A stretch of DNA of 41,780 bases from an uncultured Candidatus Marinamargulisbacteria bacterium (GCA_903902445.1 CAIUUT010000133.1:1-41780), one strand, 5' to 3'. Numbered from the stretch's first letter, positions 3,395 through 34,300 are shown. The notes: generated by a model not told the origin, from the letters alone. Translations and numbers: made by a program.

Positions 3395-4843
3395 TTAGAA
3401 ATCATCAAAGTTTAGATTATCAAAATCCACTTCTTCGCTTTCCAAATTTTGTGTACTTTTTTCCAGCTGTTTAATGGGTGGCGCGTACTCACTCGTCCCG
3501 CTAGAACCGAACATATCCTTTAACTGCCTAACCGTTTCCGCAAAAGGAGTAAACTCATGGGTACCCTGTTTAAGAAAATTATTTACTTTATCTATTTTAT
3601 CAATGGCCCAGTCTATCTTGGGATTACTACCATTTACATACGCACCGATGTTTATTAAGTCCTCGGCTTCACTATATCGAGCCAGAACCTCACGCAGTTG
3701 GCCCGCTGCTCTTTTATGTTCCTCGTTATTAATAATAGAAAATAAGCGACTCACACTGTTACTTACATCAATGGAGGGAAAATGATTTCTAGCGGCTATA
3801 TCTCTAGAAAGGATAATGTGTCCATCCAGAATACTTCTGGCTGTATCGGCAACGGGCTCGTCCATGTCTCCGCCCTCAACTAATACGGTGTAAATAGCCG
3901 TAATAGAGCCAATAACGTTGGTCCCCGTGCGTTCCATTAAGCGTGGCATCAGCGCAAAAACTGAAGGAGGATACCCCTTCGTAGTAGGCGGTTCGCCTGT
4001 TGCCAGACCGACCTCACGCTGAGCCATGGCATACCGCGTGGTACTGTCCATCATAAATAAGACTTTTTTCCCTTGGTCCCGAAAATACTCCGCCACAGCC
4101 GTTCCCACTAAGGCTCCCTTTAATCTGATTAAAGGAGGCTTATCGGAGGTAGCCACAATAACTACCGAGCGTTTCATACCTTCTTCCCCCAAGGAATCTT
4201 CTATAAATTCCCTTACTTCGCGTCCTCTTTCACCAATCAGCGCTATTACGGAAACATCCGCCTTTGATTGTCTGGCAAGCTGCCCCATTAATGTAGATTT
4301 TCCGACCCCTGAGCCAGCAAAGATACCGATACGCTGACCTACGCCTAAAGTCAGACAACCGTCAATGACGCGCACCCCAACTTCCAACACTTCATCAATC
4401 TTTGGTCTTTTTACAGGATCTGGAGGATCGCTATCGAGTGGATAATATTCCTCACAAATAATGTCACCCTTGTCATCGATTGGGTCACCTAAACCATCGA
4501 TAACTCTGCCCAATAAGTTCATGCCGACCTTCACGCCCAAGGGCTTTCCTGTAGCATAAACCGGACTGCCTGGACAAATACCATCGATGGGGCCAAAGGG
4601 CATTAATAGTACTTTTTCCTTTCTAAAACCGACAACTTCAGATCTGACAATTCGCTTATCTGGCAGCTCAATTTGGCAAACCTCTCCTACAGATACATTT
4701 TGAATATGCGCCTCTATAATTAAACCCACAACTTCGGTAACCTTACCAGTATTCTTGGTTAAAGAGCCAATCGCCTTTACTTCTTTAATATAGTCATCAA
4801 ACTTTATATAGGGACTATTGTTCATCGAGTATATCTGGCTCAT
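3395..4843 (-). CDS. fliI: Flagellar/type III export ATPase FliI
   Basis: Walker A GIFAGSGVGKST, LIGERGREVREF, MDSTTRYAMAQRE, GEPPTTKGYPPS; directly downstream of fliH. Confidence 0.93.
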   Translation of the reverse strand: MSQIYSMNNSPYIKFDDYIKEVKAIGSLTKNTGKVTEVVGLIIEAHIQNVSVGEVCQIELPDKRIVRSEVVGFRKEKVLLMPFGPIDGICPGSPVYATGKPLGVKVGMNLLGRVIDGLGDPIDDKGDIICEEYYPLDSDPPDPVKRPKIDEVLEVGVRVIDGCLTLGVGQRIGIFAGSGVGKSTLMGQLARQSKADVSVIALIGERGREVREFIEDSLGEEGMKRSVVIVATSDKPPLIRLKGALVGTAVAEYFRDQGKKVLFMMDSTTRYAMAQREVGLATGEPPTTKGYPPSVFALMPRLMERTGTNVIGSITAIYTVLVEGGDMDEPVADTARSILDGHIILSRDIAARNHFPSIDVSNSVSRLFSIINNEEHKRAAGQLREVLARYSEAEDLINIGAYVNGSNPKIDWAIDKIDKVNNFLKQGTHEFTPFAETVRQLKDMFGSSGTSEYAPPIKQLEKSTQNLESEEVDFDNLNFDDF

Positions 4844-5882
4844 CTAACTCTAAGCTGGAAAGGTCTTGGTCATCGACGTCAAAGTTAATCTGCTCAAGCT
4901 CTAAATCCTCTTCCTCATCTTCGAAAAAGCTTAAATCATTTCCATCCAGCTCATCTTCACTTAGGGTTAAGAGTTCGTCACTTTGCTCAAAAATATCATC
5001 CTCATCTTGAGTCGCAGTTTTTTCTTGTACCAAAGTTCTTTCAATAAGTGCCGTATTTGCCAATTGCTTCGTTTCAAAAGTTTTGTTAATAACTTCCATA
5101 ATACCAATCATTTTTGTTTCGATAGTAGCATCAACCAGACCATATTCGGTTTCGATAATACACCCCCCAGGCTGTATCGTTTCTGACTTCAGAATGTCGA
5201 GACTTTGTACCGAACCAATCTGTGCAATCAGTCTTTGCTTATTCTCCGTAATAAAATCATAGTGTTGGGGATTGACCTTTATTCTTATCCTTTCCATTTC
5301 CCCCATTTTACGCAGGGCGTCACGAATAACGTCCATAATATGCGGTGGGTTGGCCACAAACTCATCTGCAATGACCTTCTTCAAAATACTGTCGACTAAT
5401 CCAATAAAATAGGGTTCTGTACTTTTAAAGATATCCTTTTTATATTCATTTAACTCATTGATTTTGTTAAATATTTCTTTAGTATTTTTTATATACTCCT
5501 CTTTGATTAAGTCAAACTCACTACTGCCCTTCTGATAGCCTTCAGCATAACCCTTTTTATTACCTTGCTCTAAACCTTCTTGATAACCCAGTTTGCTAGA
5601 CTCGTTTATAACCTTTTGTTTCTGAGTCGATAAATCTTGATTGGCAGCTATCTTTTCTGACTCATAAAGCTGCTTTTTCTGACTAAATTGGATTCTCTCT
5701 ATCTCTAGATTATTTTTTATTTCTTGCACTTCCTGCAGCATTTCTTGTTTTAAAATATTTAATTCATGTTGGATTTTTTCACGGGGAACTTTTAACTCGA
5801 TACAAAGCTTTTCGGGGGGAGGTTTGGGTATTTTTTCTTTTCTATCAAAGGCTATTTGCCCCTTGCTTATGAGACTAGACAT
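4815..5882 (-). CDS. fliH: FliH/SctL ATPase regulator with long acidic C-terminal tail
   Basis: GxxxG repeats (GYQEGLEQGNKKGYAEGYQKG), IRIKVNP, PGGCIIETEYGLVDAT; lies between fliG and fliI. Confidence 0.88.
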   Translation of the reverse strand: MSSLISKGQIAFDRKEKIPKPPPEKLCIELKVPREKIQHELNILKQEMLQEVQEIKNNLEIERIQFSQKKQLYESEKIAANQDLSTQKQKVINESSKLGYQEGLEQGNKKGYAEGYQKGSSEFDLIKEEYIKNTKEIFNKINELNEYKKDIFKSTEPYFIGLVDSILKKVIADEFVANPPHIMDVIRDALRKMGEMERIRIKVNPQHYDFITENKQRLIAQIGSVQSLDILKSETIQPGGCIIETEYGLVDATIETKMIGIMEVINKTFETKQLANTALIERTLVQEKTATQDEDDIFEQSDELLTLSEDELDGNDLSFFEDEEEDLELEQINFDVDDQDLSSLELDEPDILDEQ

Positions 5883-6471
5883 TTTCCATGGCCTGTTTAA
5901 GTGAGATTAGAAAGGCTTGCTTTACACTAACGGACATTTTAGCAATGATAGGAGATTTTTGCATTTGATTTTGGATCTTTATACCTCTAATGGATAAGAA
6001 GTCCGATATTTCCTTTTGTTTATTCAGCGGGAATAAATCTAGGATAATCCCATGGAATACCTTATTTTCAGCAAACATCAAATCCACCACAATTTCCTTG
6101 GCACACGCCTGCAAAAAGTCTTCCTCGGAGACTTCTTGGGGTTGGACTTCAAGATTTTCAAGTATTGGCGCAACTTTTTGTTCTGTTTGTTCGATGTCCG
6201 TTGTTTCGACATCTTTATGCGCTTGCGTTTCTGACACTTCCTCGAGGCTACTCATATTTTGCACATCAGGCACTTGTTCTTTAACTAATTCTTCAAAAAC
6301 AAAAGCATCAATATCCTCGGGTAGCGTTATTTCACCAATTAAGGCCAATACATTGTCTTGAATTTTTGCTACGGTCTCTGGCGACAACCCAGTCAATATC
6401 TCTTGCGAAAGCTCACTACCGAGCATGGAGAATATTATCGCTGTTTTTTCTATATTATTATATTCAGCCAC
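5875..6471 (-). CDS. fliG: Truncated FliG-like protein (N and M domains only)
   Basis: FliG-N signature EKTAIIFSMLG...EILTGLS; position between fliF and fliH; 198 aa; EHPQ appears degenerate (ENKV); no MFxF/C-terminal domain. Confidence 0.7.
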   Translation of the reverse strand: MAEYNNIEKTAIIFSMLGSELSQEILTGLSPETVAKIQDNVLALIGEITLPEDIDAFVFEELVKEQVPDVQNMSSLEEVSETQAHKDVETTDIEQTEQKVAPILENLEVQPQEVSEEDFLQACAKEIVVDLMFAENKVFHGIILDLFPLNKQKEISDFLSIRGIKIQNQMQKSPIIAKMSVSVKQAFLISLKQAMENV

Positions 6472-7980
6472 CTAGGACTCCATCCAACTGTTTATTTTAT
6501 TGATAATTTTTTCTTTATTATCGGTGGCAAAGCCTCTAAATTTCTCAATAGCTATTTCCTGCTCCCTTTGCGCTACCGTTTCTTCGTCAGCATCCTCAAG
6601 GGTTTCTTGTTCTTCGAAATCCTCTGTTTCTGCTGACTTTTGTTTATTTATGACCCGTAAAATAAGGATTACAAAAATAATACTAATAATAATAAAAGCA
6701 TAAATATATTTAAAAACAAGAGCGGTAGCTCCCTTGGGTGCATTAAATTTGCCAAATTGCTTGCTGGCGGGAGAAAAAATATTTTTCTTTACAGGTTTGG
6801 CAACTTGCTGATCCGAATCAATATTTACGAAAGGGCCTTTCTCAATAACTATTGAATCTCGGCTAGGCACATAGCCAATCGCTGAAGACACTAAGGTAAA
6901 AGTAGATTCCTTTAATTCGCTGGTGAGTTGGATATTTTGATTATTGGCATCTAAAAGAATGGCCACATCCACATTGGCCAAAACATAGGGCGAACTTTCC
7001 TCTGAAGATTCAGCCAACTTAACGTTGGTAAAAACCAGATAACTGCCCATGGGGTAAAGTGTCGCCAACACATTTTTCACTTTTTGATTATAATCATTTT
7101 CGTAATTTTTCTTTAACTGATCGCGAAACTTTATGAGCAATTCTAACGGTGATTTTGTTTCATCACCCTTAGAAGAAATAAGGTCAAAAAACATGGCTTG
7201 TCGCTTGTCTAATAGCGAAGCCTTCACTCTGTCGCTTAGGATATTTCCCGCATTGTCGATGACCGTAACATCTTCGGGCTTGATGTCTTCTACCGAGCTG
7301 GCCACTAGATGCATAATGCCCTTAATTTGCTTATCGGTAATGGAGTACTTTGGTTTTATATTTAATACAACCGAAGAACTGCCTGCAATCCTGTCAGCAA
7401 AAGGTTTCTGTTCTGGAATGACTATTTGCACTCGAGCCGTATTAATGCCTTTCATATGAGAAATAATTCTAGATAACTCTCCGCTTATAGCACGCACAAA
7501 CTGTATTCGCTTGTCATAATCTGTTGCACCTAGGCTTTGTGCCTTATCGAAAATTTCGAAACCGACAATTCCCCCCTCTGGCAAACCCAGTTGTGCCATT
7601 TTGAGTCGGGCTTCATCGGCAAACTTCTTCGGCACAGCAATGTTTACGATACGCCCCTCTTTTTTAGATTCAAAGGGTATGTTTTCAAAGCTCAGTGCTT
7701 GGCGAATTTGCGAAGCATCCATAGGTGTAAGCTGCTCAAAAACTGGCAGATACTTTTCATGTTTGTTGTATATTTTTTCTTTAGGAACATCGTCATCTAT
7801 GTTTTTTGGTTTCTGATTGGAGCCTCTAATCAGAAAACCCATGATGACTAAGACAATAATCAGCGCTACGGCAACGCCCGCTGCAATTTGATAAAGTCGA
7901 TTGGAAAGAAATGTAGTGACTATACTATTGGCTTGTGTGCTATTTTCTAGGTTTTCTCCCTCTTCTACCAATCCTCTCAC
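6472..7980 (-). CDS. fliF: MS-ring protein FliF (short RBM3)
   Basis: Two TM helices; GLPEGGIVGFEIFDK, RAISGELSRII, ARVQIVIPE, HLVASSV, VTVIDNAGNILS, SAIGYVPSRDSIVI motifs. Confidence 0.9.
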   Translation of the reverse strand: MRGLVEEGENLENSTQANSIVTTFLSNRLYQIAAGVAVALIIVLVIMGFLIRGSNQKPKNIDDDVPKEKIYNKHEKYLPVFEQLTPMDASQIRQALSFENIPFESKKEGRIVNIAVPKKFADEARLKMAQLGLPEGGIVGFEIFDKAQSLGATDYDKRIQFVRAISGELSRIISHMKGINTARVQIVIPEQKPFADRIAGSSSVVLNIKPKYSITDKQIKGIMHLVASSVEDIKPEDVTVIDNAGNILSDRVKASLLDKRQAMFFDLISSKGDETKSPLELLIKFRDQLKKNYENDYNQKVKNVLATLYPMGSYLVFTNVKLAESSEESSPYVLANVDVAILLDANNQNIQLTSELKESTFTLVSSAIGYVPSRDSIVIEKGPFVNIDSDQQVAKPVKKNIFSPASKQFGKFNAPKGATALVFKYIYAFIIISIIFVILILRVINKQKSAETEDFEEQETLEDADEETVAQREQEIAIEKFRGFATDNKEKIINKINSWMES

Positions 7981-8086
7981 CTCTACAACTAAGTATAATA
8001 GAAAATCTATTAATCAGTAAATGAATTTACAAGATAACGATTAACACGGCAATAATTCACTAATTTAGCATCGATCCAAACAAATA

Positions 8087-8401
8087 CTAAACAGGCATTT
8101 GCATTATCTCTTTAATGGTCGTCACACTTGTATTAATAACCGTCATTGCCAAATTTACGGACAGATTGGCTTTTTCAACTTCTATCATTACATCCTCTAA
8201 ACTGGCCTTTCCCTGAATGTAGTCGTTAATCAACTTTTCCGAATTCATTTCTTGGGCACTGACCGCATTTAAACTATCCACAGCTTTATCTAATAACGAC
8301 TGGAAAGGATTCTTATCCAGTTTTAAGGAATTATCCACCACATTTGTTAATGGTGTGTTTTTTATTATATTACCTAAACCTGAAACCGGATTAATATCCA
8401 C
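8087..8401 (-). CDS. fliE: Hook-basal body protein FliE
   Basis: FQSLLDKAV...LEDVMIEVEKANLS...KEIMQMPV C-terminus; RBS GAGGAG before GTG; follows flgC. Confidence 0.88.
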   Translation of the reverse strand: MDINPVSGLGNIIKNTPLTNVVDNSLKLDKNPFQSLLDKAVDSLNAVSAQEMNSEKLINDYIQGKASLEDVMIEVEKANLSVNLAMTVINTSVTTIKEIMQMPV

Positions 8402-8415
8402 AGCCTACTCCTCTT

Positions 8416-8850
8416 CTATTTGCCTAAATTCATTATGGTTTGAGCCGCCTGCTTGGCAGAGTTAAACACGGCCGCATTGGCTTCATACAAACGGCGAGTT
8501 AGCGCCATATTCACCAACTCCGTAGACAACGAGTTGTCTACTACATAGACATATCCCTCGTCATCCGATTCAGGATTGGAGGGGTCATATAACTTTTGTA
8601 CCGTATCGGTTCGCTCTTCCACTCCAGACACGTAAGGGGTGTTATTTTCTTTATTGGTTTTCACTATCACTTGTTTCTGTTTGTATATCTGACCATCACT
8701 GGTCTTAGCGGTGCTGAGATTGGCTACATTTTCGGCAATAACCTCTAGCTTTTTTTGCTGGACAGACATCCCCGACCTAGCAATATTAATGACCTCAAAA
8801 ACATCCCCCCAACATAAGGCCGTAATTACTAGGAGGAGGAGGACTTTCAT
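8416..8850 (-). CDS. flgC: Proximal rod protein FlgC with N-terminal signal-peptide-like extension
   Basis: SGM...VIAENVAN, YDPSNPESDDEGYV, RLYEAN motifs. The start overlaps the flgB stop (TAATG). Confidence 0.88.
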   Translation of the reverse strand: MKVLLLLVITALCWGDVFEVINIARSGMSVQQKKLEVIAENVANLSTAKTSDGQIYKQKQVIVKTNKENNTPYVSGVEERTDTVQKLYDPSNPESDDEGYVYVVDNSLSTELVNMALTRRLYEANAAVFNSAKQAAQTIMNLGK

Positions 8851-9149
8851 TAACCTTTTCCCAAGGTTACAACTTTTCTTAAAATCTTCAATTTCGAGGA
8901 CATTAACTGGGCGTAGGATGTCATTTTTAGGTTATTTTCGGCCAACTTAGACAGCTCATTATCTAACAGCGCTTGCTTATCCGTTATTTTGGATTGAGCT
9001 TTATCTAGTTCGGTCTGAAAACTCTTGTAATTGTTGGACTCAATGTTGGCAATATTTTGAGCAATCGCCTTGTGACGGTTGGACGTTTCTTTGATGGCTT
9101 TTTCTAAACTATCAAAGGTCGAGCCATAAACGACATTATCTATTTCCAT
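8850..9149 (-). CDS. flgB: Short proximal rod protein FlgB (99 aa)
   Basis: RHKAIAQNIANIESNNYK and ELSKLAENNLK motifs. The ATG at 9149 overlaps the fliA stop (TAATG), preferred to the track start at 9161. Confidence 0.82.
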   Translation of the reverse strand: MEIDNVVYGSTFDSLEKAIKETSNRHKAIAQNIANIESNNYKSFQTELDKAQSKITDKQALLDNELSKLAENNLKMTSYAQLMSSKLKILRKVVTLGKG

Positions 9150-9919
9150 TAAACAGTCCAACTTTTCTTTAGTTTATTTGATAACTTGTTTTTTAGTTTT
9201 TCCAAGAGCTTCATGTGCAGTCTACTAATTTTACTTTTTGACATACTTAAAGCACTGGCTATTTCAATTTGGTTTTTATTTTCATAATAATACATTTTAA
9301 TTAACCTAAGTTCTTCAGGACTAAGTTCTTCTATACTTTCCTGCAAAAATATACGCTCATTGGTTCGTTCAATCCGATTTATGATTTCACTACTAATATC
9401 ATCTTTTCTTAAGCTATTTGGAACATTTTCGATATTATCCAAAGATAAAAGGTAGACAATGGCCGAATTGGAAATGGCCGACTGTAGAACAGTATCTTTT
9501 TCTTCTTCACTTTGCGGATTGGTTTCCTCATATAGGTTTTTAGCGATCTCATTCATCTTTTCCGTAACTTTGTCACGATCCACTTTTCGCGTATAGTTCG
9601 GATTGCGAATCTTCCATTCTTTACGGATGTAATCTAAGACTTCCCCTCGAATACGGTAGGAGGCGTAAGTTTTAAACAAAGTTCCTTTGTCGTTTTTATA
9701 GTTCTTCCAAGCTTTAACGAGGCCTTCGTATCCATAACCCATTAAATCGTCAAATTCTAGTCCTGGGGGCAAATTACTGGAACTAAAAATAGAGGCCACC
9801 ACCGTACGAACTAACTTTAAATACTCGTCCATTAACTCTGGAGGAATAGACTCTTGTTGTTTTTCTGTCTCCATCGCCCGTAATTGGGGATTAAATTCTT
9901 TGATTTGGATTTCTTCCAT
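9149..9919 (-). CDS. fliA: Sigma28/FliA-WhiG family sigma factor
   Basis: Region 2 DDLMGYGYEGLVKA...FKTYASYRIRGEVLDYIR; region 4 LIKMYYYE...EIASALSMSKSKISRLH. Confidence 0.85.
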   Translation of the reverse strand: MEEIQIKEFNPQLRAMETEKQQESIPPELMDEYLKLVRTVVASIFSSSNLPPGLEFDDLMGYGYEGLVKAWKNYKNDKGTLFKTYASYRIRGEVLDYIRKEWKIRNPNYTRKVDRDKVTEKMNEIAKNLYEETNPQSEEEKDTVLQSAISNSAIVYLLSLDNIENVPNSLRKDDISSEIINRIERTNERIFLQESIEELSPEELRLIKMYYYENKNQIEIASALSMSKSKISRLHMKLLEKLKNKLSNKLKKSWTV

Positions 9920-9921
9920 TT

Positions 9922-10245
9922 TTATTTAATTCCTTCGGTATTAAAATCTAATAAATTGCTATCGATCATTTGTTGCGCCAATTGCTTTTTGAAAATATCA
10001 TTTACAATCATGTCCCCAGTTTCATTACTAAAAATGTTGGACTCACGGTCTTGTCCATTTTCGTTTTGCTCTGGTTCTACGCTATAGGTCATCTTAAAAT
10101 CACGAAGATAAATTTTTTCAATGAGCATCGCTAAAAACTGATTTTTAGCATCCTGTTGTGTCGTATTTTTATCTTGGTTATTTACATTCCCATAATTAAT
10201 TATACTGGAAGAATCAAAAAAAGTTAAAGGGTTAATATAGGTCAT
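9922..10245 (-). CDS. FlgJ-like rod-binding protein (no muramidase domain)
   Basis: Directly after flgI (TAATG overlap). AKNQFLAMLIE and DIFKKQLAQQM resemble the FlgJ rod-binding domain. Confidence 0.55.
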   Translation of the reverse strand: MTYINPLTFFDSSSIINYGNVNNQDKNTTQQDAKNQFLAMLIEKIYLRDFKMTYSVEPEQNENGQDRESNIFSNETGDMIVNDIFKKQLAQQMIDSNLLDFNTEGIK

Positions 10246-11282
10246 TAAATTACCTCAATTTCAGCCGTTATAGCGCCAGCTGCCTTAATAGCCTGCAAAA
10301 TAGAAATAAGAGTGGAAGGCTTTGTACCCAGAGCGTTCAACGACTTCACCAAGTCTGCCAAAGTATTTCCACTGGATACAATTTTAAACTGAGAATTTTC
10401 TTCTGTCACGTCTATGTTAACTGCATCACCTGCATCTTTAAGAATTTTTATGCTCACATCCCCGTAGTTTATTGCCACAGGAGAAATTTTAACTTTTTCA
10501 CCGATAACAATAATGCCAGTTCGTTCACTAACGACTATCTTAGCCACCGTATCGGGGACCACCATAATGTCCATAAGCTTGGCGATAAAATCCACTATAT
10601 TGTTTTTGGCGGTTTCGGATACTCTAACTTTTAAGGTTGAGGCATCGTAACTATCACAAAATGCCAAACCAGACTTTTCGATGGCAAAAGCCATGCGAGC
10701 AGAGGTAATAAAATCTTGATTATTAAGAACCAAAGTTAAAATATTATCTTGGCTTAATTTTACGGGGATTTCTTTCTCAACGATTCCTCCATTCGGGATT
10801 ATGCCTCGGTTAGGCTCTATGCTTCTATATTTTGTTTCTCCAGACTCCGCGGAAATACCACCAATCGTTATATTTCCCTGAGCCGTAGCATAGGTTTTGC
10901 CATCAGGACCAAGAAGATTTGTTAACAGAAGCGTTCCACCTCTTAAAGAGTAGGCATCGCCCACCGAGGATACGTTAATATCAATTTTTTGACCTTGTTT
11001 ATTAAAGGGTGGCAATTCAGCCGTCACCATAACTGAGGCAATATTTCGACTTTTAATGTCTCCTGGATCGGGGGAAAGCCCCATTTTCTTCAATAAGTTT
11101 AACATCGATTTATAGGTTACAAGTACTTGCAAAGAATCTCCCGTATTAGTAAGGCCTACCACCAAACCATAGCCCATGATTCTGTTGGGTCGTGCATCTT
11201 CGATATAGGCCAGCTCTTTAATACGTGTTTCCAGAGGATAAGCCAAGCAACCAATAATAAAAAGTATTAATATTTTTTTCAT
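10245..11282 (-). CDS. flgI: Flagellar P-ring protein FlgI
   Basis: Signal peptide; RIKEL...NRIMGYGLVVGLTNTGD, VMVTAELPPF, SLRGGTLLLT, ILQAIKAAGAI. Confidence 0.95.
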   Translation of the reverse strand: MKKILILFIIGCLAYPLETRIKELAYIEDARPNRIMGYGLVVGLTNTGDSLQVLVTYKSMLNLLKKMGLSPDPGDIKSRNIASVMVTAELPPFNKQGQKIDINVSSVGDAYSLRGGTLLLTNLLGPDGKTYATAQGNITIGGISAESGETKYRSIEPNRGIIPNGGIVEKEIPVKLSQDNILTLVLNNQDFITSARMAFAIEKSGLAFCDSYDASTLKVRVSETAKNNIVDFIAKLMDIMVVPDTVAKIVVSERTGIIVIGEKVKISPVAINYGDVSIKILKDAGDAVNIDVTEENSQFKIVSSGNTLADLVKSLNALGTKPSTLISILQAIKAAGAITAEIEVI

Positions 11283-11321
11283 AATTTTCTCATTAAATCA
11301 TTCAACTCTAAATATATACCC

Positions 11322-11357
11322 AACACTCACATTCACTCTTCACTCTTCACTTTTAAC
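11322..11357. repeat. Short degenerate heptamer tandem repeat (TTCACTC-like)
   Basis: acactcacattcactcttcactcttcacttttaact in the flgH-flgI spacer. Confidence 0.5.
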
Positions 11358-11367
11358 TGTTTACTAG

Positions 11368-11973
11368 TTATAGCAACCAATCAAATATGCGCCCCAGAAA
11401 CCCTTTTTCCTGTCCGCTGGTTACATTTCCATAACCTTTAATTTTCAAAACAGCATCAGAAATTAGCGAAGAAGGAATGGTGTTGTCGGCTTGAATGTCG
11501 GCAGCTCGAATAACCCCTTCCATACTGATTTCTTCTTCTTCATTATTGATAATTATTTTTTTGCTGCCCCTAATGGAATATCGCCCCTCTTCAACTTTAT
11601 AGATAACCGCTGTTAACTGGGCTTGCAACTTGCTGCTTCTGCCGACAGTGCCACTACCCGTAAAGTTATTATTGGCATTGTAACCTGCTTTTCCCTGACT
11701 TTGAGCGGATTGATTGAGATTCATGTATTGAGCTACCTGAGACCAATTTAAGTTGGCATCTCCTGCTAACTGCGTGTTTTTCTTAAGGTCGGTTTGAGAT
11801 TTCTGTGTAGCGGTATTGCTCTCATCAATTTTAATAAGAACGATATCCCCTACATTTCTCGCCAAGGCTGGCCCATAGGGTGAAACATTATCTTCCGTCC
11901 ACAGTGACCCGCTAAATGCACAGGACCAAATAAAAGTAACCATAATAAATAGTGGAAAAACTTTATTCATCAT
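11368..11973 (-). CDS. flgH: Flagellar L-ring protein FlgH
   Basis: Signal peptide then GSLW; ARNVGDIVLIKIDE, IRGSKKIIINNE, GVIRAADI..DNTIPS; C-terminal GFLGRIFDWLL. Start uncertain (11970/11973/11979). Confidence 0.92.
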   Translation of the reverse strand: MMNKVFPLFIMVTFIWSCAFSGSLWTEDNVSPYGPALARNVGDIVLIKIDESNTATQKSQTDLKKNTQLAGDANLNWSQVAQYMNLNQSAQSQGKAGYNANNNFTGSGTVGRSSKLQAQLTAVIYKVEEGRYSIRGSKKIIINNEEEEISMEGVIRAADIQADNTIPSSLISDAVLKIKGYGNVTSGQEKGFLGRIFDWLL

Positions 11974-11989
11974 TTTCAAAACCCCAATT

Positions 11990-12140
11990 AATTCCGCTTG
12001 TTCTGACGCCCCCGTCTGGCCCCCTTAGTCCCCAATTTCAAGTTCTCGTTTTAGCCGCACAATTGTGCGCATCGGCGAATGATTATTCTCCGCAACGATG
12101 TTCTTAGCAAAGCCAGCATCCCTCGTATCGGCGGAACTTG
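11990..12140 (-). ncRNA. ssrS: Probable 6S RNA
   Basis: About 150-nt GC-rich segment folding as a rod: closing stem AGUUCCGC/GCGGAAUU, stem CUGGCUUU/GGGGCCAG (G-U pairs favour the minus strand), central bubble, UCGUU/AACGA and terminal hairpins. The 3' segment CUUGAAAUUGGGGACUAAGGG resembles the CUUGAA..GGG..AAGGG of E. coli 6S as I recall it. Confidence 0.6.
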
Positions 12141-12141
12141 G

Positions 12142-12501
12142 CTAGCTACTGGCTTTCTGTACTATGTTTTTTTCGTCTACTAAAACCACTTTCGGCTTAA
12201 AAGTTCGCGCCTTTTTCGCTTTAATGATGCCATAAGCAATAATAATTACCTTATCTCCTGGCACTGCAAGCCGTGCTGCGGCGCCATTCAATACTATTTC
12301 ACTATCCTTCTTACCACGAATAACATAAGTTACAAAACGTTCAGCGTTATTTACATTTACTACATGTACCTGCTCAAATTCATTTATTCCCGCTAAATCC
12401 ATGAGTTTGGAATCTATGGTAATACTACCTTCATAATCTATGTTCGTATCCGTGACCGTAGCACGGTGTATTTTTGACTTACAGACCGTTATTTCCACCA
12501 A
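12142..12501 (-). CDS. panD: Aspartate 1-decarboxylase
   Basis: [10 protein letters not shown], self-cleavage site YEG|[20 protein letters not shown]. Confidence 0.96.
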
Positions 12502-12614
12502 AAAATCCTTTCTTAACTAAAATATTGCTCGTTTACTAGCTCCCCAGTAATAATGATATTGCGGGGACTTTTGTTTCGTAAATTTTCTACTACTTTCAGA
12601 TTTCGATACTGGCT

Positions 12615-13268
12615 CTAGATTTCAAGCCTCACTTCTACATTGTGACTATCAATAACTATAGCATCTAAGATTTTCTTAGTCTTCTCGTTTAACACTTTAA
12701 TTCTACTACCAATAGTCCCATTTTTCAATGCAGTCCCTGGAACGGTAATAGCGATTAACTTGTAACGTAAATTTATAAAACAAGGCTGCTGATTGAAGAT
12801 AACCGGCTCTTCTTTTAAGTCGGTGTCCTGAAAAAAGTCATCCCGTTTTTTATTAAAACGACTTATGCTGTTGATAATTTTGGAACTGTCGGTTATGACA
12901 AAGGTGGAGACCTTATCGAGTCTTACCCAGTCTAAGCGGAGATTTTGAGAAACTATTTTATCTCCAGGCTTAAGTGCGCCAACACAAACCGGCACTTGTT
13001 GTTGCGCCTCCAAAACATAGTCTAAATTGCCAATAAAGCGCTCTTGCCTCAAGAGCTTCAAACTATTGAAACCATAGGCATAGCTATCAGGGTAAGTGAC
13101 AGTATCCGCTGATGATATTTGCAATTTGTTCAAATTTTGATATTGAATTGAATAGGTTACCACTTTACCCTGTGCTGAAAAATACTCCGTAATCTTTTGA
13201 GGTAAATCAACTTTAAACGCCGAAAAAGATAAACAGGTTACAGCAAGGAACGCAACAAAGCTACGCAC
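12615..13268 (-). CDS. flgA: P-ring chaperone FlgA (SAF domain)
   Basis: Signal peptide; C-terminal ITVPGTALKNGTIGSRIKVLNEKTKKILDAIV; start overlaps the end of flgG. Confidence 0.82.
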   Translation of the reverse strand: MRSFVAFLAVTCLSFSAFKVDLPQKITEYFSAQGKVVTYSIQYQNLNKLQISSADTVTYPDSYAYGFNSLKLLRQERFIGNLDYVLEAQQQVPVCVGALKPGDKIVSQNLRLDWVRLDKVSTFVITDSSKIINSISRFNKKRDDFFQDTDLKEEPVIFNQQPCFINLRYKLIAITVPGTALKNGTIGSRIKVLNEKTKKILDAIVIDSHNVEVRLEI

Positions 13269-14055
13269 GCGCTATATCGCTGGCTGATTTAAGCATGTTT
13301 TCACCAGACTGAATGGCTTTCGTTATGATATCAAAAGCTCTTTGCGTAATAACCATCTCCATCATCTCTCCGATGATATCAACGTTACTCGATTCTAAGG
13401 AATATTGAGAGATGGTACCAAAATTTTCTTGTCCCGGAATACCCGTCACAGCCTCACCCGATGCTACGGTTTGTTTATATAAATTGCCACCAATGCTTTC
13501 TAACCCCGAGGGATTTACAAACTTGGCCAGCTGTATTTGCCCCACAAGTCTTTCTTGTGTTTCTTGGTTAAGGGTAACAAACAAATTGCCGTCCGAGGCA
13601 ATTCGCACAGTTTGAGTATTATTGGGTATGACAATTTGTGGTTGCAAAATATTACCATTAGCGTCTACCAAGTTTCCTTCACTGTCTCGACTTAGGTTAC
13701 CCGCTCTGCCGTAGGCGACGTCTCCGTTGGCCGTTTTATAAGACAGAAACCCTTCACCGTTAATGGCAATATCGAACTCATTATTGGTGACGGCAATGGT
13801 TCCTTGGCGAAAATCCTTAGGGGTGGACACGATGCGAACACCAGCTCCAAGTTCAATTCCTGCTGGCTTACCAGCAGCTTCTGATTCTTTCTTGGCAATG
13901 GCTTTTTCTAAGACTTGAGGAAAAATATTTTCCAATTCCGTGCGGGTCGATTTATAACCTACTGTTTTGGAGTTGGAGACATTATTGGTAATATTTACCA
14001 TTAGCTTCTCAAAGGTAGACATCCCAGAGGCGCCAACATAAAATTCTCTTAACAT
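13261..14055 (-). CDS. flgG: Distal rod protein FlgG
   Basis: GASGM..NNVSNSKTVGYK, DIAINGEGF, FVNPSGLESIGGNLY, LESSNVDIIGEMMEMVITQRAF. Confidence 0.92.
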   Translation of the reverse strand: MLREFYVGASGMSTFEKLMVNITNNVSNSKTVGYKSTRTELENIFPQVLEKAIAKKESEAAGKPAGIELGAGVRIVSTPKDFRQGTIAVTNNEFDIAINGEGFLSYKTANGDVAYGRAGNLSRDSEGNLVDANGNILQPQIVIPNNTQTVRIASDGNLFVTLNQETQERLVGQIQLAKFVNPSGLESIGGNLYKQTVASGEAVTGIPGQENFGTISQYSLESSNVDIIGEMMEMVITQRAFDIITKAIQSGENMLKSASDIARA

Positions 14056-22405: not shown

Positions 22406-23923
22406 ATGAACAATTATGAAATTTTAAAAAACTATGACCTCTTTAATAATTTATCAATCGCTACCTTTACCATGGTTAATGAAAATCTACGCGAGGAGTC
22501 CTTTGTCAAAGGAACAACTATTTTTAATGAAGGAGAAATCGGTGATAAAATATTTTTCATTGTGCAAGGCAGTGTTTCGATATCTGTAGAAAATAAGCAA
22601 GGGCAAGATATAATCCTCTCTTCGCTTTGCGCAGGAGAGTTTTTCGGGGAAATGGCGATGCTTACACATTCCTCACGAACTGCTACCGCAATAGCTGCAA
22701 GTGACTGCGTGCTTTCCTATATGCAAAAACACGAGTTTGACCAACTACTTGAGAATCATCAGGTAATGGCGGTAGAGCTTAGCAGAGTTCTCAGCCAAAG
22801 ACTTATATCTACAAATCGAATTATTACCCATAAAGTAACCAATGAACTAATACTATTTATTGGTGCAGATGCAAATATTGATAAAACAAATATTTTTCTA
22901 GATTATTTCGAAAAAATCACTGCAAAAAAAATAATTATTTTGGACGAATCTATGGATATTGAGCAAGAACTTCAAAGAGTAAATAACTGTTTCCTAATAG
23001 TAAAGTGCAAGGTAATTACGCCACAAATTAGAGCTTTGGCTCAGCATATTATTAGTTTTCAAGATCTGCAAGAAACAGGAATATACTCCTTGAAAAGCTC
23101 CTGCATGCTGGTGGATTTGCAAAGGGTTGCCCGTTCTATCGCCAAAAAAACGATTGGCATTGCACTTAGTAGCGGAACTGCTCCTGGTCTAGCCCACGTT
23201 GGAGTAATGAAAGTTCTAACCGAAAATAATATTCCTTTAGATTTCATCGCTGGAACAAGCGGTGGTTCGTTATACGGGGCTCCGTTTGCCTTCAACCTAA
23301 ATTATGATGCGATCTATACTGCTTTTGAACAAGTCTACAAAAAGCCTCTGTATCAATTATGGGATCCATCCCTAAGTATTAGCGGAATCTTTAAGGGCAA
23401 TAAATTATTGCTCAAAACCATTCATAAACTTCTTGGCAAAAAGAATATTGAAGAAACCTATATTCCTTTTGCTGCTGTCTCCACTAATTTATATACGGGG
23501 AAAGAAGAGATAATTTCCACTGGCGACTTAATGAACGCCATTCGAGCCTCTTTGTCTATCCCTATTATGTTTACTCCTGTGCGACACAAAAATAAGTTAC
23601 TCGTAGATGGAGTAGTTACCACTCCCGTTCCCATTTCGGCCTTGGAAAAAAACAATATACATATAAAGATTGCGGTATATGTTTCCGAGCTAAATAAGTT
23701 TGAAAATAAACATCCCAATTTACTTAATGTTTTTCTTCGAGCTAGGAATATTTCTTCGGACTTTATTGCTGATGCAAGTGTGGAGCGAGCAGATGTAATT
23801 ATTAAGCCAAAAGTCCATCATTTAAAGCAATTTGAATATAACCGCATCGATGACATCATAAAAGCTGGCGAGGAGGCTGCACTACAGGCATTGCCCCGCA
23901 TAAAGAAATTATTACAAGCTTAG
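22406..23923 (+). CDS. cNMP-binding domain plus patatin-like phospholipase (NTE/RssA-like)
   Basis: GEFFGEMAML..RTAT; GLAHVGV, GTSGG nucleophile elbow, ASLSIP, LVDGVV. Confidence 0.88.
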   Translation: MNNYEILKNYDLFNNLSIATFTMVNENLREESFVKGTTIFNEGEIGDKIFFIVQGSVSISVENKQGQDIILSSLCAGEFFGEMAMLTHSSRTATAIAASDCVLSYMQKHEFDQLLENHQVMAVELSRVLSQRLISTNRIITHKVTNELILFIGADANIDKTNIFLDYFEKITAKKIIILDESMDIEQELQRVNNCFLIVKCKVITPQIRALAQHIISFQDLQETGIYSLKSSCMLVDLQRVARSIAKKTIGIALSSGTAPGLAHVGVMKVLTENNIPLDFIAGTSGGSLYGAPFAFNLNYDAIYTAFEQVYKKPLYQLWDPSLSISGIFKGNKLLLKTIHKLLGKKNIEETYIPFAAVSTNLYTGKEEIISTGDLMNAIRASLSIPIMFTPVRHKNKLLVDGVVTTPVPISALEKNNIHIKIAVYVSELNKFENKHPNLLNVFLRARNISSDFIADASVERADVIIKPKVHHLKQFEYNRIDDIIKAGEEAALQALPRIKKLLQA

Positions 23924-31375: not shown

Positions 31376-34300
31376 TTAATGATGTTTCTTCCCGTTAACT
31401 TCTACAAAATAATAAACCTTCTGTCCTGTCAAGAGCAAGTGAAGCTCTATTAGGTACGAACCATTTTGCAAAAAGGTATAATTAAAGTAATTTACTTTGT
31501 TTATTGGCTGGCTGGTCTGTTTAAGAAAGAGGATCTGTTCTTCTTGGGCACCAATTTTTTTGACGATTATCTCTAGGGGAACTAGATTCACCAACTCCTT
31601 GGTAGTAATCTTATAATTGAACGTTTGCTCTTCACTTAGGGCTACGATTTGGTTGACGCTATCTTGCAGAATCAAATTAAAGGAATTAGCCGGCTTGGTT
31701 TGCAAAACAAACGTTTTAGATTTCTTTAGCCAAGGAATGTCCACTTTTTCTTTCTTATAGAGGGTTACTTGCTCTAAGGACTCTACATAAGAAGGCGAAA
31801 TAATTATCGGGGCCTTATCTCGCAAATTGACTACTGTACTGAAATTTCTCTTGCTTATTTGAATGCCAATATCGACTGGTTCCTTAGAGCTATTAACTAA
31901 CTCAACCTCATAGGGTTGCCCCTTGGTATAAAGTGTTACTTTTTGAGGAATCGAAGTAAATTCCTTGCCATTGAAAATAATTTTCTGCCGAACAACCTCT
32001 TGCTGAGATGAGCTTTCTATGAGGGGTTGAATCGTTACCGTGGGAGAAGTGATTGACGTTGTCTTCCCGACAGTAACAAAAAGTTGGAACCTTACAATAC
32101 TATCCTTATGGGCTTTTGCATATGCTTGCACTTCGTACTCTCCTGGCTGTGTAGGGGCTAACAGCTTTGCAACAGCCACACCTTGTTCATTGGTGAAAAC
32201 CTCCTGAGGCAAATGAGTCATTTCCTTTTTCTGGTTCACGGAATATATTTGAAAAACCACCGGCAGATTGGCAATGGGTTGAGACTGCGTATCTAAAACC
32301 TTAACGGCTAAATTTTCAGCGAGCTCTTCACCAGAGCCCACCGATTGGCCATCTCCTCCAAATAGCTCAACTTTACTGACTTTAGTGGATATGGATTTAA
32401 CAAAAAAGGATTGATATTCCCATTTATTATTACTCCTATAATACGCCCTAATCTCTCTTATTCCTGGCTCAGAGTCCAGCTCAAAATTGAAACGTGCTAC
32501 CCCCTCATGATTTGAGAGAGTGGGTTTCTCTATGCGTCGCTGTTCCCCTTTGAACCTAAGCGTATAGGACCACTTAACTTGTGCATTAGCAACGGGATTG
32601 TTGTAAGCATCTAATAACTGCACAGCAAAGTCCTTGGCCAGCTTAGAGTTGGCGTTGGCTAATTGATTATCACCGTCCATAATCTTGGCCTTACTGATGA
32701 ACTGAGGTTTGAGCTCAATATTCACGCTAAACTGCGTTTTTTGCGAATCTGAGGCATAGATTTTGGCTGTATAAAGCCCCGACTTTGAGGGAAAATCGAG
32801 ATGGAAGGAGCCCTCCCCACGTCCATTGGCTTGTGTGTCTACGCCAACTTCTGATTTATCGGAGTTGAGCGGATATAAATCTAGACTGACTTTAGCCTTA
32901 CTAATAGGATTACCAAACTTATCTGTAGCTCGGAACGTAAAAACATCTTTGACTCTTTCATCTACCATAAAAACTAACCGTTCCTTCTCGATATCTTTAA
33001 GCGCAATCTTTGCGATTTGTGCGCCTCTCGCTCTTATTGGTAAGAAGCCAAACTTAGTGAATCGGTTATCGGCTACATAAAACCAATATTTCCCCTCCCG
33101 CGCAGGCATTTCTAATTTAGCGTATGCAAAACCATCTTCCTGAATTGTGGCTTGATTAAATCTATTTTTTGATGCTTTCTTTTGAGCATTAATGCCATAA
33201 TAAAAAACACCATATCTTAGTCTATTTTTATACTTGTCGTAGGCGGAAAACTGTAGGTTCTCTACCGTTGCACCAACTGGATAAAGGGCATTGGGCTTAT
33301 TGGCAATTACGATTTCCTCTGGATCCAAAGCCAAAGCATTTATTGTAATATTTTTATTGAGATTATTCCCCAACCTTACATTGTAAATATATGTACCCGC
33401 TGTCTTGCCTAAGACTGGTGAAAAATAGGCATGCCCCTGCTTATTGGTTCTCACGCGCAGAGCCGTAAAATTATTTAGCTGCTGATTGGGGACTCGGATA
33501 CAGTTAATATCGAGGTTTATACTGCCTACTGGCTTACCATTATTATCCGCGACCATAACCTCAATGGGAGGCATAAGCTTACTTTCTACTTTTCCTTGGC
33601 GGGGATAGGAATTGATGTTAAGGGCGGAAATATCTTCAGGAATGACATCGATTTTCACCCAAGTAATAATTGGGGTTTTACCATCTGCGTATTTACCTTT
33701 AAAGTTGATTTCATCTCCTTGGTCACTTACGATAAAGTTATAAGACACCAACCCCTGCTTGTTGGTATTTACCGCAATATTTTGCTGGTAACTTACACCT
33801 TTTCTTATTACCAAGTACTCAAACTCTACCTTGTGGTTACGCAGAACATGACCATACTGATCCTTTAAAACAAAGACTATATTTTCGGGCAAGGGTTGCG
33901 AGGGGAAAACCTTTATCACGGGCTTACTCATTAAATATAGTTGATATTTTTTAGGCTCGGCACAATAAACCTTAAACGCCACCTTAGAACCGGCAGCACT
34001 GGCCACTACATTTTCCAACTTTTTTGCGCTTGATTTTGGAAAAATACTGGCTCTTGCCAGACCGTCAGCATCGGTTTTATCATCTTTTTCATACCAATTT
34101 AGGTTTTCGCTCTTTTCCCAATGAATATCGGCATCTGAAATGGGGTTACCTAGGGAGTCTAAAACCTGAACTTGCAAAGGACTATTTGGTATTTTATTCC
34201 ATTCCACTACTTGGTTGTCTCCTGAAACAATTTGCACCTTAGCTGCTGAACCTGGTACTACCAGTAAGGAATAGCCCGCTTCCAGTTCAGAGAATTTTTC

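Follow-up and report, generated by a model that had tools for sequence, protein, structure and literature searches.

Can a set of flagellar basal-body genes without the parts that turn a flagellum serve something other than swimming? The question is raised by a contig of 41,780 nucleotides from an uncultured Candidatus Marinamargulisbacteria bacterium (GCA_903902445.1 CAIUUT010000133.1:1-41780), referred to as a whole as the window, which carries a flagellum-like gene cluster at positions 3395-14055. A first-pass annotation, made from the sequence alone, had proposed that this cluster encodes a non-rotating secretion apparatus. Following it up in the source genome and its relatives, we find it fairly likely that the core of a distinct flagellum-homologous apparatus, present throughout the phylum, is encoded in the window, and that this apparatus does not serve swimming and has a role in export or at the surface or envelope of the cell. 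The phylum, Margulisiibacteriota, is a sister phylum of the Cyanobacteria. The window is contig C133 of the source genome G000 (2.14 Mb in 214 contigs, 93% complete, ~39% G+C); other G-numbers denote relatives and L-numbers denote loci. The window's flagellar set is called B-type and the canonical set found on other contigs A-type.

An intact cluster with remodelled ring and rod proteins

Positions 3395-14055 contain 14 open reading frames (ORFs), every one intact and all on the minus strand, in the transcription order FlgG, FlgA, PanD, FlgH, FlgI, orf107, FliA-like sigma factor, FlgB, FlgC, FliE, FliF, FliG-like (198 amino acids, aa), FliH and FliI. The window proteins were classed by Pfam (expectation values, E, in brackets):

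3395..4843, minus strand: FliI-type export ATPase (B-type), 482 aa; ATP-synt_ab (9e-89), T3SS_ATPase_C (1e-27)
4815..5882, minus strand: FliH, 355 aa, whose C-terminal tail is long and acidic; FliH (7.7e-18)
5875..6471, minus strand: short FliG, 198 aa; FliG_N only (2e-5)
6472..7980, minus strand: FliF, the protein of the MS (membrane and supramembrane) ring, 502 aa; YscJ_FliF (1.6e-50), weak FliF_C
8087..8401, minus strand: FliE, 104 aa; FliE (3e-15)
8416..8850, minus strand: FlgC with a Sec-signal-like N-terminal extension, 144 aa; Flg_bb_rod, Flg_bbr_C
8850..9161, minus strand: short FlgB, 103 aa as listed from a TTG start; no Pfam match, aligns to the FlgB of relatives
9149..9919, minus strand: FliA-like sigma factor inside the cluster, 256 aa; Sigma70_r2, r4
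9922..10245, minus strand: orf107, no family, in the position of FlgJ-N (rod-binding protein); no Pfam match
10245..11282, minus strand: FlgI P-ring (peptidoglycan-ring) protein, 345 aa; FlgI (1.9e-103)
11368..11979, minus strand: FlgH L-ring (lipopolysaccharide-ring) lipoprotein, 203 aa; FlgH (1.2e-39)
12142..12501, minus strand: PanD aspartate decarboxylase, non-flagellar; Asp_decarbox (2.6e-46)
12615..13268, minus strand: FlgA P-ring chaperone, 217 aa; ChapFlgA (1.7e-18)
13261..14055, minus strand: FlgG distal rod protein, 264 aa; LlgE_F_G_D1 (7e-20), Flg_bbr_C (1e-12)

The junctions FlgI/orf107, sigma/FlgB and FlgB/FlgC are TAATG overlaps of stop and start codon, and several further junctions overlap by 8 to 29 bases, which bears out the earlier description of an intact, translationally coupled cluster. 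The sigma factor shares 27% identity with FliA on contig C192, and its position in the cluster is constant across the phylum. The ORF at the orf107 position matches the A-type rod-binding protein by BLAST in four loci (L053, L063, L064, L075), a weak indication that orf107 may be a FlgJ-N-like rod-binding protein.

The FliG-like protein had been read as lacking its C domain. Besides the Pfam result, a profile of 42 short FliGs aligned to solved FliG over residues ~3-171 only (Aquifex FliG residues 8-171, E 3e-11; Salmonella FliG residues 3-152, E 4e-11); the alignment takes in the EHPQ-like motif, and beyond residue ~171 nothing aligns. The C-terminal torque domain is thus absent, to which we add that the middle domain is retained: the layout is an N domain, a disordered acidic linker and a middle (ARM_M-like) domain. 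An AlphaFold2 (AF2) model of the window protein has helical domains at 6-64 and 116-197, with a mean predicted local distance difference test (pLDDT) score of 67.5; when this model was submitted to Foldseek every match had E > 0.6, though FliG structures topped the list. The protein measures 174-202 aa in nine relatives, and a WOR-1 orthologue of 159 aa carries Pfam FliG_N and FliG_M. Searching 1.84 billion representative proteins gave, as the 63 best matches (E up to 7e-22), only proteins of at most 206 aa, full-size FliG appearing from rank 64. Short FliG_N+M clusters in the ESM Atlas are labelled Margulisiibacteriota, Spirochaetota and Actinomycetota, taxon labels that rest on few members.

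FliF was found to comprise two transmembrane (TM) segments, the ring-building motifs RBM1 and RBM2, a compact domain resembling RBM3 and, in the C-terminal tail, a conserved Trp (TM segments, here and below, and the FlgC N-terminus come from a hydropathy scan). The window protein and a nine-sequence profile match Salmonella FliF over residues 45-224 (RBM1-2) only, while the A-type FliF of G000, used as a control, matches it over 22-558. The AF2 model (44 sequences, mean pLDDT 76.9) has an alpha-beta-beta-alpha-beta RBM3-like unit at 278-382 (helix 278-308, strands 314-324 and 332-344, helix 354-368, strand 376-382), in which the two successive strands are joined by a 7-residue turn. Foldseek matched the model to FliF rings (E down to 7e-26) and to one RBM3 ring (E 2e-5). 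The collar hairpin of Salmonella FliF is inserted where the model has this turn. The earlier claim of a missing beta-collar is kept in a conditional form: B-type FliF would lack the collar insertion, with the RBM1-2 alignment and the model pointing that way, and it keeps an RBM3-like domain.

The two rod proteins were as first described. FlgB has 99 aa when read from the ATG at 9149, which shares bases with the stop codon of the sigma gene; B-type FlgB measures about 97-127 aa across the phylum vs 134 aa for the A-type FlgB of G000, to which the window protein aligns except over the central ~35 residues of the A-type protein. FlgC has a hydrophobic extension before its normal N-terminus, with an AxA|DVF-type site (hydropathy peak at residues 1-24), consistent with the signal peptide attributed to it. 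The extension is conserved in 11/11 class-level sequences (window and L040-L049) and was found in none of the ten Saganbacteria/WOR-1-type sequences compared. A Sec-type signal on FlgC is unexpected, since a rod protein normally leaves via the type III gate.

Conservation of the B-type set across the phylum

Related loci were found in Candidatus Marinamargulisbacteria, Riflemargulisbacteria, Termititenax, Margulisiibacteriota, Saganbacteria and WOR-1. A synteny survey of 80 of them, BLAST-annotated against labelled G000 proteins, revealed the B-type order with a short FliG (149-197 aa) after FliF throughout Margulisiibacteriota, including a curated complete WOR-1 genome and a 1.77-Mb chromosome; 41 short FliG ORFs adjoin 43 B-type FliF ORFs. 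The cluster is syntenic in G008 and G009 down to the internal panD and a neighbouring GNAT gene. The position of panD, between flgA and flgH, is also kept in G012 and several other Margulisiibacteriota loci. Identity to G008, which belongs to another family, reaches 71% for FliI, 68% for FlgG and 66% for FlgI. Protein identity to the closest relatives is 55-80%, a distance at which synonymous sites are probably saturated.

A FliI phylogeny, one of the checks proposed at the outset, was built from 67 rows by the IQ-TREE 'quick' method with Shimodaira-Hasegawa-like approximate likelihood-ratio test (SH-aLRT) support. All 41 B-type FliI sequences, that of the window included, fall in one clan (SH-aLRT 100), the window lying inside its class clade (99). 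Together with the gene order conserved across the phylum, the tree indicates that the B-type set is ancestral and vertically inherited. Six A-type FliI sequences form a separate group (92).

The distribution of the remaining flagellar functions was surveyed in 91 sampled Margulisiibacteriota genomes, each at least 85% complete and G000 among them, of which 11 belong to the window's class and 80 lie outside it. The first-pass annotation had named as support for its reading an export gate in the absence of motAB, hook, filament, full-length FliG and che genes. The relatives outside the class fit this pattern:

FHIPEP (FlhA): 89/91 genomes, 78/80 outside the class
FliG_C: 39/91 genomes, 28/80 outside the class
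Flagellin_N: 12/91 genomes, 1/80 outside the class
FliD_C: 12/91 genomes, 1/80 outside the class (weak, below cut-off)
MotB_plug: 36/91 genomes, 25/80 outside the class

Thus, no flagellin-family match was obtained in 79/80 genomes outside the class, and 52/80, among them the two closed genomes G018 and G030, hold the B-type set with no FliG_C match. FliG_C and MotB_plug occur in almost identical families of the phylum. The rod/hook family gave 3-5 matches in each of the five genomes searched that have the B-type set only; all were in open frames of at most 299 aa, which leaves these five genomes without FlgK or a long FlgE. The three B-only genomes checked for CheW gave no match. Vertical inheritance across the phylum and the scarcity of filament and torque genes in relatives are thus consistent with a non-rotating derivative there.

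Could the cluster be the functionless, decaying relic of a lost flagellum? Shortening of FliG, FlgB and the FliF collar region and the relocation of some genes out of the cluster could be taken that way. Intact and translationally coupled frames, identical shortened forms and gene order kept phylum-wide, the high identity to G008 and the retention of FlhA in 89/91 genomes make decay extremely improbable, in agreement with what had been argued from the intact frames of the window.

The remaining B-type genes lie on other contigs

The cluster in the window has no export gate, and we located the missing functions elsewhere in G000:

C110:667-8264: B-type FliPQR, FlhB, FliM-like, FliN-like and a 287-aa FlgE-like protein (homology to a G012 contig)
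C198:8190-11682: B-type FlhA and a second sigma factor (homology to a G012 contig)
C165:5808-8483: FliK-like, FlhB-C-like and FlgF-like proteins (homology to genes upstream of G012 flgG)
C165:7695-8483: the FlgF-like gene itself, beside the FliK-like and FlhB-C-like genes
C126:1219-1704: FliJ-like (Pfam 28.0 bits vs a cut-off of 28.4)

The genes on C110, C198 and C165 are counted in the B-type set because of their linkage in G012. One contig of that genome encodes orf155, FlgE-like(292), FliM-like(442), FliN-like(129), FliO-like and FliP, followed by orf421, FliQ, FliR, FlhB, FlhA, orf98 and sigma(196); the C110-type fliPQR/flhB and C198-type flhA are thus contiguous there, and the proteins of this gate contig match best to those of C110 and C198. 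On another G012 contig, FliK-like(429), FlhB-C-like(113) and FlgF-like(254) genes lie directly upstream of the window-type flgG...fliI cluster. Hence flgF and fliJ, reported at first as missing, are better described as relocated, fliJ with a match just below the Pfam cut-off.

B-type FlhB carries the NPTH autocleavage motif and the FliK-like proteins carry the Pfam Flg_hook domain. A profile of five FliM-like sequences gave matches to the middle domain of solved FliM (E 1.7e-10) and to SpoA. The LSQxEIDALL-type N-terminus that binds CheY was not found in the G000 B-type FliM-like protein; the A-type FliN has ISQSEIDALL. No motAB genes were found in the B-type loci of G000, G008, G009 and G012.

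Some features of these contigs stand apart. Between B-type fliP and fliQ lies a gene for a 361-aa protein that has a signal peptide and belongs to no known family (C110:2786-3871, minus strand; L018); its G012 counterpart has 421 aa, and none was found in G018, G030 and G044. The second sigma factor (198 aa; C198:8190-9487, L004) comes after B-type flhA and two family-less small ORFs, and in L120 and L125 (f3 family) the second of these ORFs is fused to it, giving a 303-aa protein.

A canonical flagellum coexists with the B-type set in the window's class

A tblastn search with window proteins across the G000 contigs found paralogues of FliI (58% identity, on C176), FliF, FlgC, FlgI (40%), FlgH and FlgG (41%, on C74). 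G000 has two FlhA, two FliP and two full-length FlhB proteins, and a second FliE match, on C165, is stronger than the window FliE. The A-type genes are arranged as follows:

C176: flgB-flgC-fliF-fliG (334 aa, N+M+C)-fliH-fliI-fliJ
C74: flgF-flgG-flgA-flgH-flgI-rod-binding protein, then flgK-flgL
C141: FliK(624)-FlgD-FlgE(757)
C63: motB-fliL-fliN-orf167-fliP-fliQ-fliR-flhB
C192: flhA-flhF-flhG-fliA
Single genes: FliM on C5, FliE on C165, flagellins on C74 and C163, FliD on C196

CheW/CheA-type genes are also encoded (five CheW matches in G000, four in G008). Since full-length FliG, MotAB, FlgE, FlgK, FlgL, flagellins, FliD and CheW/CheA are all encoded, G000 cells are probably flagellated and motile via the A-type set. 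In the source genome, then, the absences named as support for the first-pass annotation do not hold, and the full-length FliG, MotAB, hook and flagellin that it had named as grounds for refutation are formally present. They do not decide the matter, because they belong to a separate set with its own FlhA, FliPQR/FlhB, FliF, FliI, FliK, FlgD, rod and rings. A non-swimming, non-rotating apparatus fits the gene content of relatives.

All 13 genomes of the class examined have at least two FHIPEP matches, so that both sets coexist; among the 91 sampled genomes, two full-length FHIPEP copies are confined to the 11 of this class, and in the rest of the phylum the B-type set is the only one of flagellar type. 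A window-type FliF (42-61% identity) and a second FliF were found in all 11 same-family and same-order genomes. That the second set came from contamination or mis-binning was considered and rejected, both sets being present in 13/13 class genomes. The A-type set may be an old paralogue or may have been acquired by transfer.

Parts are shared between supernumerary flagellar systems in some bacteria. The B-type body could therefore be a second flagellum, particular to this class, that borrows the A-type hook, junction and filament and perhaps rotor proteins. The two sets do occur together in every class genome, each genome has one FlgE-long/FlgK/FlgL/FliD set, linked to A-type genes, and the B-type FliK-like ruler and FlhB switch could handle late substrates. 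Set against this are the persistence of the orthologous set in most of the phylum without flagellin, FliD, FlgK or FliG_C, a B-type FliG without torque domain, a B-type FliM without the CheY-binding motif that A-type FliN has, and sigma factors of the B-type set's own. We regard borrowing of this kind as improbable.

Separate FliG_M+C/MotAB modules

There are seven FliG_C, seven MotA-family and seven MotB_plug matches in G000. Some belong to a module without export genes (C166:97-1578, minus strand, and C182:25-672, plus strand; L139-L148 in relatives), conserved within the class in the order membrane FliG_M+C, FliG_M+C only, MotA, MotB, which looks like a stand-alone rotor-stator unit. The membrane-anchored protein (490-550 aa) consists of a signal or TM segment, a ~160-aa periplasmic domain, a TM segment, FliG_M and FliG_C; the soluble FliG_M+C-only protein has 253-276 aa. 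Another cluster (C85:8131-15021, L019) encodes a FliF_C-like two-TM protein (435 aa), full FliG (333 aa), MotA, MotB, a 202-aa FliM-like fragment and two tetratricopeptide-repeat proteins, with no export or rod genes; it would be the third FliF/FliG-like pair of G000.

The main alternative, raised by these modules, is that the B-type set is a rotary motor with a split FliG, in which the N+M protein anchors to FliF and FliM while torque comes from FliG_M+C proteins acting in trans with the adjacent MotA and MotB, the whole turning a short hook-like or unknown appendage. The number of FliG_C, MotA and MotB matches in G000, the conservation of the module within the class and the nearly shared families of FliG_C and MotB_plug all speak for such a motor. 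So does the gene arrangement in G016 and G044, where a 480-491-aa member, MotA and MotB lie directly upstream of the B-type genes, a position matching that of motAB in Firmicute-like flagellar operons. Nevertheless, the 52 genomes outside the class that hold the B-type set without any FliG_C, two of them closed, would have no such torque domain. Within the class the modules are unlinked to B-type clusters, and the membrane-anchored members may form independent rings, since they have their own periplasmic domain and TM segment. The filament genes sought with the flagellin, FliD and rod/hook searches were likewise not found. A complex prediction of short FliG (from G009) with soluble FliG_M+C (score 0.10, mark 0.32) counts neither way on binding. 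Overall, we consider a split-FliG motor unlikely.

A proposed non-swimming basal body

The B-type set encodes an export gate, a C-ring-like (cytoplasmic-ring-like) platform, a rod, P and L rings and a short distal protein resembling FlgE, together with a ruler and a switch; no torque (in most lineages), steering, junction, filament or cap genes of its own were found. From this content we infer that the set assembles, does not rotate and serves export, and the non-swimming apparatus favoured here could work as follows. FliF would form a membrane ring with RBM1-3, the collar insertion being absent in the model, and its C-terminal tail would bind the N domain of short FliG. The middle domain of the latter would in turn bind the FliM homologue that lacks the CheY-binding peptide, and FliM and FliN homologues would form a C-ring-like sorting platform serving FliH, FliI and FliJ. 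The FliPQR-FlhB-FlhA gate would export FliE, FlgB, the FlgF-like protein, FlgG and the FlgE-like protein of about 270-290 aa, with FlgC of the window's class seemingly routed through Sec instead. FlgA, FlgI and FlgH would build the P and L rings. The FliK-like ruler and the NPTH motif of FlhB suggest a substrate switch, and two dedicated sigma factors suggest a checkpointed gene hierarchy. The end product would most likely be an envelope-spanning, non-swimming basal body that exports proteins or serves as a structure of the surface or envelope; in G000 it would coexist with a canonical motile flagellum. Secretion as its function is thus a reading of gene content.

Several observations weigh against this picture. 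The genomes surveyed are metagenome-assembled, though two are closed, and absence means not found in those searched. A look-up of RNA runs for window positions 4100-14055 listed none. The FliI tree was obtained by a quick method, and its A-type group sits in an unresolved polytomy with other phyla, so that this part of the proposed phylogeny gave no placement. The collar statement depends on one AF2 monomer model and on the place of the collar in Salmonella FliF. With a canonical flagellum in G000, swimming is uninformative on the B-type set. Late substrates are to be expected from the FliK-like ruler and the FlhB switch, none of them identified in this analysis, and a filament protein unrelated to flagellin would slip past the family searches used. 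Finally, G000 and 28/80 genomes outside the class encode FliG_M+C proteins beside MotA/MotB, which makes a rotary apparatus with trans-encoded parts possible; in G016 and G044 the module abuts the B-type genes, and rotation by a split FliG is therefore possible in some lineages.

A more specific version of the non-swimming reading, which we put forward tentatively and with rather less than even confidence, is that Margulisiibacteriota possess an ancient, independently evolved flagellum derivative: a non-swimming type III export organelle that keeps a rod and L/P-ring conduit and lacks the filament, hook junctions, chemotactic control and the FliG torque domain, some lineages having added separate membrane-anchored FliG_M+C/MotAB modules.

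Two further genes of the window lie outside the cluster. A possible surface adhesin of 1649 aa (31376-36325, minus strand) contains Big_1, macroglobulin MG2/MG4 and invasin-D3-like repeats, and at 22406-23923 (plus strand) a cyclic-nucleotide-binding domain is fused to a patatin-like phospholipase domain.

Comparison with known systems

No description of a B-type system was found in the Margulisbacteria, Saganbacteria, Termititenax and Riflemargulisbacteria literature, a scope that excluded supplementary files; the terms flagell, motil, type III, secretion and pili are all absent from the main text of Matheus Carnevali 2019 (PMC6349859). The B-type set matters for several reasons. It would represent a whole phylum retaining a defined, remodelled basal body, and thus a natural test of the role left to a basal body without rotation or filament. 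The parts that it points to as dispensable are the C domain of FliG, the collar of FliF and the CheY-binding motif of FliM. With both machines present in the window's class, the two can be compared inside one cell, and one may ask how cross-assembly is prevented, a point on which the Sec-type signal of FlgC may bear.

The canonical flagellum is the closest point of reference. Both it and the B-type set have an export gate, an ATPase complex, an MS ring, FliM/FliN, rod proteins, P and L rings, FlgA, a FliK-like ruler and a FliA-like sigma factor, and the B-type gate operon mirrors the canonical order flgE-fliM-fliN-fliO-fliPQR-flhB-flhA-sigma. Unlike the canonical flagellum, the B-type set has no FliG C domain, no flhF/flhG, a FliM without the CheY-binding motif, operons that in G000 are without motAB or fliL, a short FlgB and, in the model only, a FliF without the collar insertion. 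An FlgE-like protein of about 270-290 aa takes the place of the long hook protein, and there are no dedicated FlgK, FlgL, FliC or FliD.

Basal bodies without filaments are known otherwise from recent reductions. Buchnera is not known to have a flagellin, and a transport role has been proposed for its basal bodies. Buchnera aphidicola is reported to keep basal-body and type III export genes and to express them highly (PMC8109811). Whereas the Buchnera set is what remains of an enterobacterial flagellum after reduction in an endosymbiont with a 600-kb genome, the B-type set is ancient and spans the phylum, in lineages both free-living and symbiotic; its FliG and FliF are remodelled, and in one class it stands alongside a full flagellum. 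For Lysobacter enzymogenes OH11, which has no flagella, a second report describes flagellar type III genes without a functional fliC, with FliI and FlhB required to secrete non-flagellar proteins (PMC7688988). There the loss is recent, within a genus, and secretion was demonstrated by experiment, while the B-type set has a much deeper distribution and defined domain losses. Because filament-less flagellar basal bodies are known from Buchnera and Lysobacter, the "third architecture" of the first-pass annotation overstated the novelty.

The injectisome shares with the B-type set the concept of a flagellum-derived export machine stripped of motility parts. Abby and Rocha 2012 (PMC3459982) propose that the first step towards the injectisome was that genes specific to the flagellum were lost, with a Myxococcales 'intermediate', and state that non-flagellar type III secretion systems (NF-T3SSs) are monophyletic, hence a single exaptation into the injectisome. 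Judged by its genes, the B-type set is not a member of the injectisome family: it keeps the FliE, FlgB and FlgC rod and the FlgH/FlgI rings, secretin, SctD and SctF not having been among the families searched for. B-type and A-type FliI score alike against solved flagellar and injectisome ATPases, a comparison uninformative on affinity. Neither Buchnera, nor Lysobacter, nor the injectisome matches the feature combination or the conservation depth of the B-type set. If the export-organelle version proposed above is true, the B-type set would mark a second, secretin-free route by which a flagellum became a secretion or surface machine, in parallel with the way the injectisome arose.

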